Below are positions 33,971 to 34,171 of a stretch of 64,000 bases of DNA, piece after piece (within the stretch, counting starts at the first letter, position 1; each line of letters begins with the position of its first letter). This DNA is from Candidatus Poribacteria bacterium. Its GTDB lineage: Bacteria > Poribacteria > WGA-4E > PCPOR2b. The notes beneath the pieces are model-generated. The model ran no database searches and was not told the DNA's origin. It saw only the letters and a list, made by a program, of their open reading frames with translations. The stretch spans positions 4,896,001-4,960,000 of the forward strand of contig OZ220744.1 of the NCBI GenBank assembly GCA_965116925.1, read 5' to 3'. The position numbers were made by a program, and so were the translations under genes.

Positions 33971-34081
33971 TTATCAAAAAATCCTTTAGGTGTAAAACCC
34001 AAATCTTTAGATTTGGGATACACACACGCTTTAGCGTGATTTTTCATTGATTTTGTAGGTCAAAAATGGTATACTTGTCTC

Positions 34082-34155
34082 GGCTTTCGTGGGAGAATGA
34101 CAGCCCTATCGCACGATAGGGTCTCCCACGCTCCACTGTCATGGAAATGAAAGCC
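34082..34155 (+). ncRNA. Candidate pseudoknotted leader RNA upstream of tnpB (copy 2)
   Basis: GGCTTTC/GAAAGCC, GTGGGAGA/TCTCCCAC, CCCTATCG/CGATAGGG, pseudoknot ATGACAG/CTGTCAT. Starts 7 nt after a TTGATT-17-TATACT promoter. Confidence 0.6.
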
Positions 34156-34171
34156 AGAAAGCTATTCTCCG

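Follow-up and report, generated by a model that had tools for sequence, protein, structure and literature searches.

What would an elaborate, pseudoknotted RNA fold be doing directly upstream of tnpB, at the end of the transposon opposite to the one expected to yield the guide RNA? The question is raised by a 64,000-nucleotide stretch of Candidatus Poribacteria DNA, referred to throughout as the window, whose host is a sponge-symbiont bacterium and which carries two tnpB-only IS200/IS605 (IS1341-type) elements, A and B. The original prediction held that both tnpB genes are preceded by the same covarying RNA architecture, starting at the presumed +1 of their transcripts, and that this left-end module acts as a cis regulator of TnpB translation, as a ribozyme or riboswitch, or as a component of the ribonucleoprotein.

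Two divergent tnpB elements share a left-end leader

Element A spans positions 33971-35411 of the plus strand (1441 bp), with boundaries set from a second genomic copy of 99.7% identity as well as from related copies, and encodes a TnpB protein of 378 aa (34172-35308, +). Element B lies on the minus strand at 11754-13176 (1423 bp), is accompanied by five further genomic copies of 96-98% identity, one of them truncated, and encodes a TnpB of 408 aa (12984-11758). The two proteins combine the same OrfB_IS605 and Cas12f1-like TNB domains and are 26% identical to each other. TnpA-type subterminal hairpins flank A and B at both ends: in A the left one, CCCAAATC-TTTA-GATTTGGG (33998-34017, +), mirrors the right one (35381-35400), both are centered on CTTTAG, and the latter forms part of the right end (35309-35411, +) in which the scaffold of the guide (omega) RNA is expected. 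Y1-transposase domains (PF01797) are encoded elsewhere in the genome, with five matches.

In element A the left hairpin is followed, in order, by a terminator-like hairpin with a T-run (34025-34048, +; identified by consensus scan, with a counterpart at 13113-13134 of the minus strand in B), a σ70-like promoter, the leader fold and the tnpB ATG at 34172. The promoter (34047-34075, +) reads TTGATT-17-TATACT with a TG 5′ of the -10 hexamer and ends 6 nt before the first leader helix, P1. The leader itself comprises the roughly 85 nt between promoter and start codon, with copies at 34082-34171 (+) in A and 12985-13075 (-) in B, and is distinct both from the TnpA-type hairpins, including the left-end one, and, as had been proposed, from the right-end guide RNA region.

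The placement of the promoter recurs among related leaders. Of the 89 unique ones, 74 have a TAnnnT hexamer ending 4-8 nt ahead of P1, the distance being exactly 6 nt in 65, and a TTGnnn -35 hexamer is also present in 52 of the 89; the 15 exceptions are mostly near-consensus variants, together with the class TCCTTCC, which has no clear σ70 site. From the position of the promoter, the RNA is predicted to start at or beside the first base of P1. RNA-library material was available as contigs, taken from four out of 14 runs, of sponge or other metatranscriptomes, which give no start, end, strand or level: one contig of 151 nt (33983-34133, 0 mismatches) spans the predicted start, one loose contig end bears a related leader tail, and cover is deepest in the bin 35358-35411 at the right end and low over 34062-34169, a depth that cannot rank parts of the gene. 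Because the contigs lack starts and levels, and because DNA may be present, they speak neither for nor against the promoter. A promoter-like antisense site (34142-34113, -) falls within the variable knot and P3 sequence.

A covarying three-way junction tied by a kissing contact

All of the helices named in the original prediction are present in both copies, and the fold lies far beyond chance: minimum free energies are -36.6 kcal/mol for copy A (z = -3.6) and -37.1 kcal/mol for copy B (z = -4.0), with 0 of 200 shuffles as good in either case. In copy A the 5′ strand of P1, which we term X (GGCUUUC, 34082-34088, +), would form the first nucleotides of the RNA and pairs with R1, the 3′ strand (GAAAGCC, 34149-34155, +). 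Next come P2 (34089-96 with 34122-29, +) and P3 (34104-10 with 34115-21, +; loop GCAC), and the pseudoknot joins the P2/P3 internal loop (34097-103) to 34136-42. In copy B, X occupies 13069-75 and R1 13000-06, with the promoter at 13082-13110 and the ATG at 12984-82. Energy minimization alone returns P1, P2 and P3 together with an extra hairpin, P4 (TCCA/TGGA, 34132-35 with 34142-45, + in copy A), and leaves two loops unpaired, that of P4 and the internal one between P2 and P3, which are precisely the two strands assigned to the pseudoknot.

The pseudoknot stands but takes on a more specific form: because its 3′ strand is the loop of P4 (CUGUCA, 34136-41), it amounts to a loop-internal-loop kissing contact within a three-way junction. 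In the overall modeled fold this junction is composed of P1, the P2-internal loop-P3 arm and P4, with P1 stacked straight onto P2 (J1/2 of 0-2 nt), a kissing helix of 6-7 bp, a variable J2/4 of 0-3 nt and an A/U-rich, mostly AU-ending J4/1 of 2-4 nt. Of 82 sequences, 72 close P3 with a GCNN loop. In some relatives a hairpin of ~30 nt (CCGTTCCGAGCATTCTCGC...GCGGAA) sits within R1 or R2, a tandem copy of R1 described below, and splits the tandem pair (L097:581-700, L154:585-700).

Comparative data support a covarying structure that extends from the presumed +1 as far as the start codon. Across 46 sequences, 97.9% of cells are paired and 21 of 22 pairs show compensatory changes, with none of 500 shuffles matching any measure and slid controls at 42-54% paired. 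In the larger set of 93 distinct sequences from Candidatus Poribacteria genomes, aligned to a broader covariance model, 95.1% of cells are paired and 24 of the 25 modeled pairs of P1-P4 change in compensation, again with 0 of 500 shuffles as good; by helix, pairing reaches 96-97% in P1, 97.6% in P2 and 98.8% in P3. P4 is paired in just 75% of cells at fixed columns in these 93 sequences; when the register is left free, 74 of 82 sequences have the knot strand flanked by a stem of at least 3 bp, of which there are 35 distinct forms. Among the P1-P3 cells, G-U outnumbers A-C by far (103 vs. 14 of 2038), and the folding strand is therefore the tnpB-sense strand.

For the pseudoknot, each internal loop was paired with its own linker, with the linkers of other sequences and with shuffled linkers. 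At least 5 contiguous pairs form in 72 of 80 distinct loop/linker combinations and at least 6 in 62 of 80, compared with 445 of 6216 non-self combinations (7.2%) and 4.3% of shuffled linkers reaching the latter mark; 42 different knot strands retain complementarity. The knot falls below 5 pairs in 8 of 90 unique sequences, and one lineage of A-type elements has both P1 and the knot decayed although its tnpB is intact.

A second, covarying partner for the 5′ end of the leader

The tail of the leader begins at 34156 in copy A. The conserved AGAAAGCTA noted there in the original prediction is indeed present and can be read more precisely as R2, a tandem second copy of R1: in copy A it is GAAAGCU at 34157-34163 (+), 8 nt 5′ of the ATG, and in copy B it occupies 12992-98 (-). 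R2 changes together with X. Leaders with X GGCUUUC carry R1 GAAAGCC and R2 GAAAGCU or GAAAGCC; GUCUUUC is accompanied by GAAAGAC, UCCUUCC by GGAAGGA, UCACAGU by ACUGUGA and CCGUUUC by GAAACGG, in each case as both R1 and R2; UUACCAGU has ACUGGUA as R1 and CUGGUAA as R2, AGCACUU has AAGUGC and AAGUGCU, respectively, and R2 likewise tracks X in the GCAUUG classes. By our own grouping of 22 X variants into 11 sequence classes, an R2 of at least 6 bp is found in at least 9 of the 11.

Scored at fixed columns, the X:R2 helix is paired in 91.5% of cells and all 7 of its pairs change in compensation. Its covariation score of 0.322 (shuffles: 0.137) is attained by 0 of 500 shuffles, and slid controls are 41-67% paired; part of this covariation reflects two common states, GGC and GUC, which relatedness could link. 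In the window's genus R2 ends 8-10 nt 5′ of the ATG, at the position of a Shine-Dalgarno sequence, and the 3′ end of the 16S rRNA reads ...CACCUCCUUUCU, whose last bases are complemented by AGAAAG at R2: A34156 together with R2 supplies this hexamer, the complement of the 16S 3′ CUUUCU, and X carries the same CUUUC as the rRNA tail. In three loci of family f2 (L076, L078 and L087) it is the AUG start codon itself that lies inside R2.

Pairing of X with R1 and with R2 is closely balanced in many leaders. With X forced onto one or the other, ensemble energies differ by a median of 0.4 kcal/mol, 31 of 75 sequences fall within 1.5 kcal/mol, and closure on R1 is favored in 48 of 75. In both window copies the R1 closure, which leaves the ribosome site free, is favored by ~3 kcal/mol, and masking by X:R2 may hence be weak there. 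We also considered an upstream open reading frame starting from the AUG at the J4/1-R1 junction and rejected it, as the distance to the tnpB ATG is 25, 24 or 23 nt among copies and the frame is inconstant.

Leader copies with and without tnpB

The window's genome contains ~28 leader copies of at least 19 distinct variants, and the broader covariance model finds 39 places at E ≤ 0.1. Of these 39, 25 stand directly before a tnpB-like coding sequence, 20 near full length and 5 fragments by our reading of profile coverage. The other 14 have no tnpB behind them and comprise mini-elements, a four-copy fragment family, several decayed fragments and one leader of a helicase gene. A loosened pattern of the R1-R2 tail, which lets either repeat start with C and carry A, C or G as its sixth base, occurs at 73 places in the genome; 28 of these have an X-like heptamer at most 95 nt upstream, and in our reading 24 of the 28 belong to leader copies, leaving 4 that do not.

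Among the decayed fragments is the third partial copy that had been reported in the window. It does exist (57015-57216, -; leader part 57015-57115; E = 0.023 with the broader model), as a truncated left end that retains a hairpin (57172-93), the promoter, P2 and P3, with X mutated and with R1, R2 and tnpB all absent. The terminal bases of this fragment (TTCATCA on the minus strand, window 57205-57225) overlap the ATG of a plus-strand neighbor gene starting MKVAVIGLAGVGRAHV.

The mini-element, derived from an IS of the MLKTHK type, measures 420 bp, contains no open reading frame and is present in three copies (G000:C1:4280289-4280713, 5588951-5589366 and 2585180-2585589), each with the left end, promoter and leader joined to a portion of the guide-RNA scaffold and the right end, and without an adjacent R2. 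In our reading of two sequences, the fold is kept between copies of 76% identity through four double changes and with no pair broken. Because the fold is kept in an element that has neither a reading frame nor an adjacent R2, translation control cannot be its sole role.

The single intact gene other than tnpB behind a leader encodes a UvrD-like helicase of 908 aa, extended at length on its N-terminal side (G000:C1:5833001-5835840), and is preceded by a lone leader copy with its own promoter. The leader is absent from 11 of 11 homologue loci in eight other genomes; since none of them carries it, the helicase leader is best seen as a one-off remnant, and with this sole linkage unconserved we rejected the idea of a general portable leader serving many genes. 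In this genome the leader is confined to tnpB elements or what is left of them.

The four-copy fragment family (G000:C1:322171-322291, 338630-338740, 3117392-3117512 and 3232562-3232681) presents the leader 3′ of a σ54-like motif, TGGCAC-N5-TGCT, instead of a σ70 site, with ~260 nt of conserved upstream sequence and no open reading frame behind it; three of the four copies have an extra hairpin between P4 and R1.

Distribution and relation to known RNAs

Beyond the window's genome, the first covariance model, with at most 67 scored per genome, has matches in 30 of the 61 related genomes; for the window's own genus, these take in 18 of 19 further genomes. In a sample of the phylum, matches occur in 62 of 151 genomes (19 of 25 in family f1, 41 of 100 in f2 and 1 of 10 in f3), and the 15 genomes sampled from six further families have none. 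All 10 downstream proteins scanned are TnpB, from at least five lineages that are 19-41% identical to that of A, bearing out the claim that divergent TnpBs share the leader. Related TnpB loci were sought with a five-protein alignment, and the two nearest outside the Poribacteria (51-52% identity; n = 2 only) have no leader match at the locus or in their genomes.

In primary sequence, X, R1, R2 and P2 go with the lineage of the host and not with that of TnpB: in the window's genus, G(G/U)CUUUC-GUGGGAGA is common to four TnpB types, while the family f2 TnpBs nearest to that of A (41% identity) are preceded by quite different leader helices. From these examples we infer that leaders have either been swapped between co-resident IS families or are held by a host-specific constraint.

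No Rfam 15 family accounts for the leader. A search of the 64-kb window with Rfam 15 (4227 models) gave no match at gathering score, nothing fell on the leader at E ≤ 10 within 33950-35750, and 15 leader variants returned two chance matches alone at E ≤ 10 (E = 3-9). In particular, the leader matches neither IS605-orfB-I nor IS605-orfB-II, RNA motifs that lie beside IS605 orfB (tnpB) genes, be it at gathering score or at E ≤ 10. No published account of a tnpB leader fold was found in the full texts searched, which include few subscription papers, nor did the literature found there hold a paper on Poribacteria with TnpB or address control of tnpB expression from the left end. To judge from sequence and pairing, the leader is a good candidate for a new RNA family.

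The omega RNA, the right-end guide RNA of TnpB, derives from the 3′ end of tnpB together with the right end and stops at the right-end boundary, beside the guide. It comes from the same element and protein gene and is likewise a structured RNA of the IS transcript, but the leader lies at the opposite end (34082-34171, 5′ of tnpB) and has no guide segment. A covarying link between the two was considered and rejected: when a third partner for the knot strand was sought in the guide-RNA region, self matches (2-3 of 39) were no commoner than cross pairs (~7-9%). The suggestion that the leader is a component of the ribonucleoprotein accordingly found no support there.

Purine and THF-I riboswitches share a tuning-fork layout in which P1 closes the junction and a distal tertiary helix ties two arms. 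The overall layout of the leader is alike, but it has no conserved junction pocket and no match to their models, and conserved nucleotides of the kind expected in a ligand pocket are lacking, the GCNN loop of P3 alone being conserved. A second likeness is to IS10 with its fold-back inhibition, the MS2 maturation-gene leader and hok mRNA, in which the RNA 5′ end pairs with the Shine-Dalgarno or AUG region across a folded domain and an alternative or earlier pairing leaves a window for translation. The leader's 5′ end, too, can pair at the Shine-Dalgarno or AUG region across a folded domain; to our knowledge, the tandem R1/R2 decoy and the fold itself are absent from these systems.

The closest precedent belongs to the same superfamily. 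[quoted passage not shown] The leader resembles IS200 in being a structured 5′UTR located in the left end between the IS promoter and the start codon. The hairpin upstream of it in A and B, terminator-like by consensus scan, may correspond to the terminator by which IS200 blocks read-through from outside, and X, an upstream strand complementary to the ribosome-binding site, may sequester that site through the covarying X:R2 helix, which is the less stable closure in the window copies. The leader differs in that the gene it precedes is tnpB and not tnpA, in that the single stem-loop gives way to a three-way junction, tied by a kissing pseudoknot, and to the R1/R2 tandem decoy, and in that sequence and covariance-model matches are absent and a conserved antisense RNA was not seen. 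The leader is new in architecture and of a known kind, the structured IS leader that controls expression of a transposon gene.

A proposed bistable leader and its alternatives

In light of these results, we propose that a bistable 5′ leader gates TnpB translation, with X on R1 as the open and X on R2 as the masked state, and in addition caps the precursor of the guide RNA, a reading that we hold to be somewhat better than an even bet (roughly 0.55). The leader would form the 5′ part of the transposon's own tnpB transcript, and its RNA would begin with the first base of P1 or beside it. Pairing of X with R1 closes the compact three-way junction, with P2-P3 and P4 docked through the kissing helix, and would leave the ribosome site free, whereas pairing of X with R2 would mask the Shine-Dalgarno position in the window's genus or cover the AUG in other lineages. 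Such a gate would keep TnpB translation low and might be tunable, and the fully paired 5′ end could shield the transcript, as the precursor of the right-end guide RNA, against decay that depends on the 5′ end. Of the functions offered in the original prediction, cis regulation of TnpB translation is the one specifically supported, in that X has, besides R1, another covarying partner on the ribosome-binding site or AUG. It is also important to note a point against the gate: masking needs just a simple hairpin, and the elaborate fold with its conserved GCNN loop hints at more.

The retention of the fold in the mini-element points to capping or processing as a genuine second function of the leader, and raises the question whether it could be the only one. 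A purely protective 5′ cap or processing module that helps the guide RNA to mature, with R2 as an incidental feature, would agree with P1 beginning at the predicted +1 without a 5′ overhang and with compensatory changes preserving the fold in three copies that have no reading frame; this account leaves unexplained, however, why R2 tracks X in at least nine classes and why it lies on the Shine-Dalgarno sequence or AUG, and the mini-element evidence comes from one family of three copies. As a complete explanation we judge it unlikely.

The excess of structure over what masking demands could instead point to a sensor, in which binding of a partner, be it a small molecule or a protein such as TnpB acting in a feedback loop, shifts X between R1 and R2. 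The R1 and R2 states are nearly isoenergetic and would therefore be easily tipped, and conservation is seen in P3, with its GCNN loop in 72 of 82 sequences, and in J4/1, which mostly ends in AU. Against this stand junctions of 0-4 nt that are A/U-rich and variable, a knot whose sequence varies freely, and the failure to find either an Rfam aptamer match or a covarying partner in the guide-RNA region; a specific protein partner is further disfavored because the leader is common to TnpBs of 19-41% identity. We regard a sensor as rather improbable, and the riboswitch once suggested for this position does not emerge from the data.

No firmer is an extension of the gating model, which we offer as speculation with rather long odds: the leader might be a bistable decision point at which the IS transcript becomes either TnpB messenger or guide-RNA precursor, perhaps set by TnpB or another factor that binds the conserved fold, and might survive in mini-elements that have no reading frame by licensing guide-RNA production from their promoter. 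If so, nuclease and guide would be kept in balance. Be that as it may, the transcript that yields the guide RNA bears at its 5′ end a strongly covarying RNA, apparently restricted to this phylum, whose switch between X:R1 and X:R2 is open to test. Should the leader set the ratio of protein to guide or the life of the transcript, RNA-guided transposon nucleases would be subject to a new level of control, and the leader could also be of use as a small natural element with which to tune expression.

Release of a stable, trans-acting small RNA would be consistent with the compact and stable 5′ fold, and the 5′tnpA RNA reported for IS200 is a precedent from the same superfamily (PMC5435999, PMC12594629). 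We nonetheless consider it very unlikely for the present leader: neither a terminator nor a conserved processing site was found 3′ of the fold, the variable loops speak against a fixed target, and contig cover of 34062-34169 is low relative to the right end, a depth, as stated, that cannot rank the two.

An even poorer fit is a structure acting as single-stranded DNA on the transposed (top) strand in aid of TnpA-mediated transposition. Retention of the fold in the mini-elements would suit it, and since the top strand has the sequence of the mRNA, the bias for G-U, or G-T in DNA, fits as well; yet A and B have separate TnpA-type hairpins at both ends, and a structure fixed relative to promoter and start codon, with R2 on the Shine-Dalgarno sequence or AUG, would be meaningless for DNA.

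Finally, a self-cleaving ribozyme or splicing element freeing the IS transcript from host read-through RNA, although foreshadowed by the HDV-like ribozymes of retrotransposons and by IStrons and in keeping with a compact pseudoknotted fold at the 5′ end of a mobile element, is scarcely credible given a predicted promoter of its own at +1, a terminator-like hairpin upstream, no conserved junction core and no match to a ribozyme or intron family, group I introns included, even at E ≤ 10.

Neighboring sequence features

The surroundings of the two elements and of the third fragment contain further repeats. Directly 3′ of element A lies a large CRISPR-like array (window 35930-44263), with the repeat GTTTCAATTCCACACTGGTTCGATTAAAAG and a period of ~66-67 bp. 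Adjoining the right end of A is a repeat of ~350 bp (35413-35759), possibly a MITE, which has dozens of full or partial genomic copies of 73-97% identity. A motif, CACGTTTCACGCATCACGTTT(C/T)ACG, is found both at ~11650-11700, just beyond the right end of B, and at 56925-56965, near the third leader fragment.
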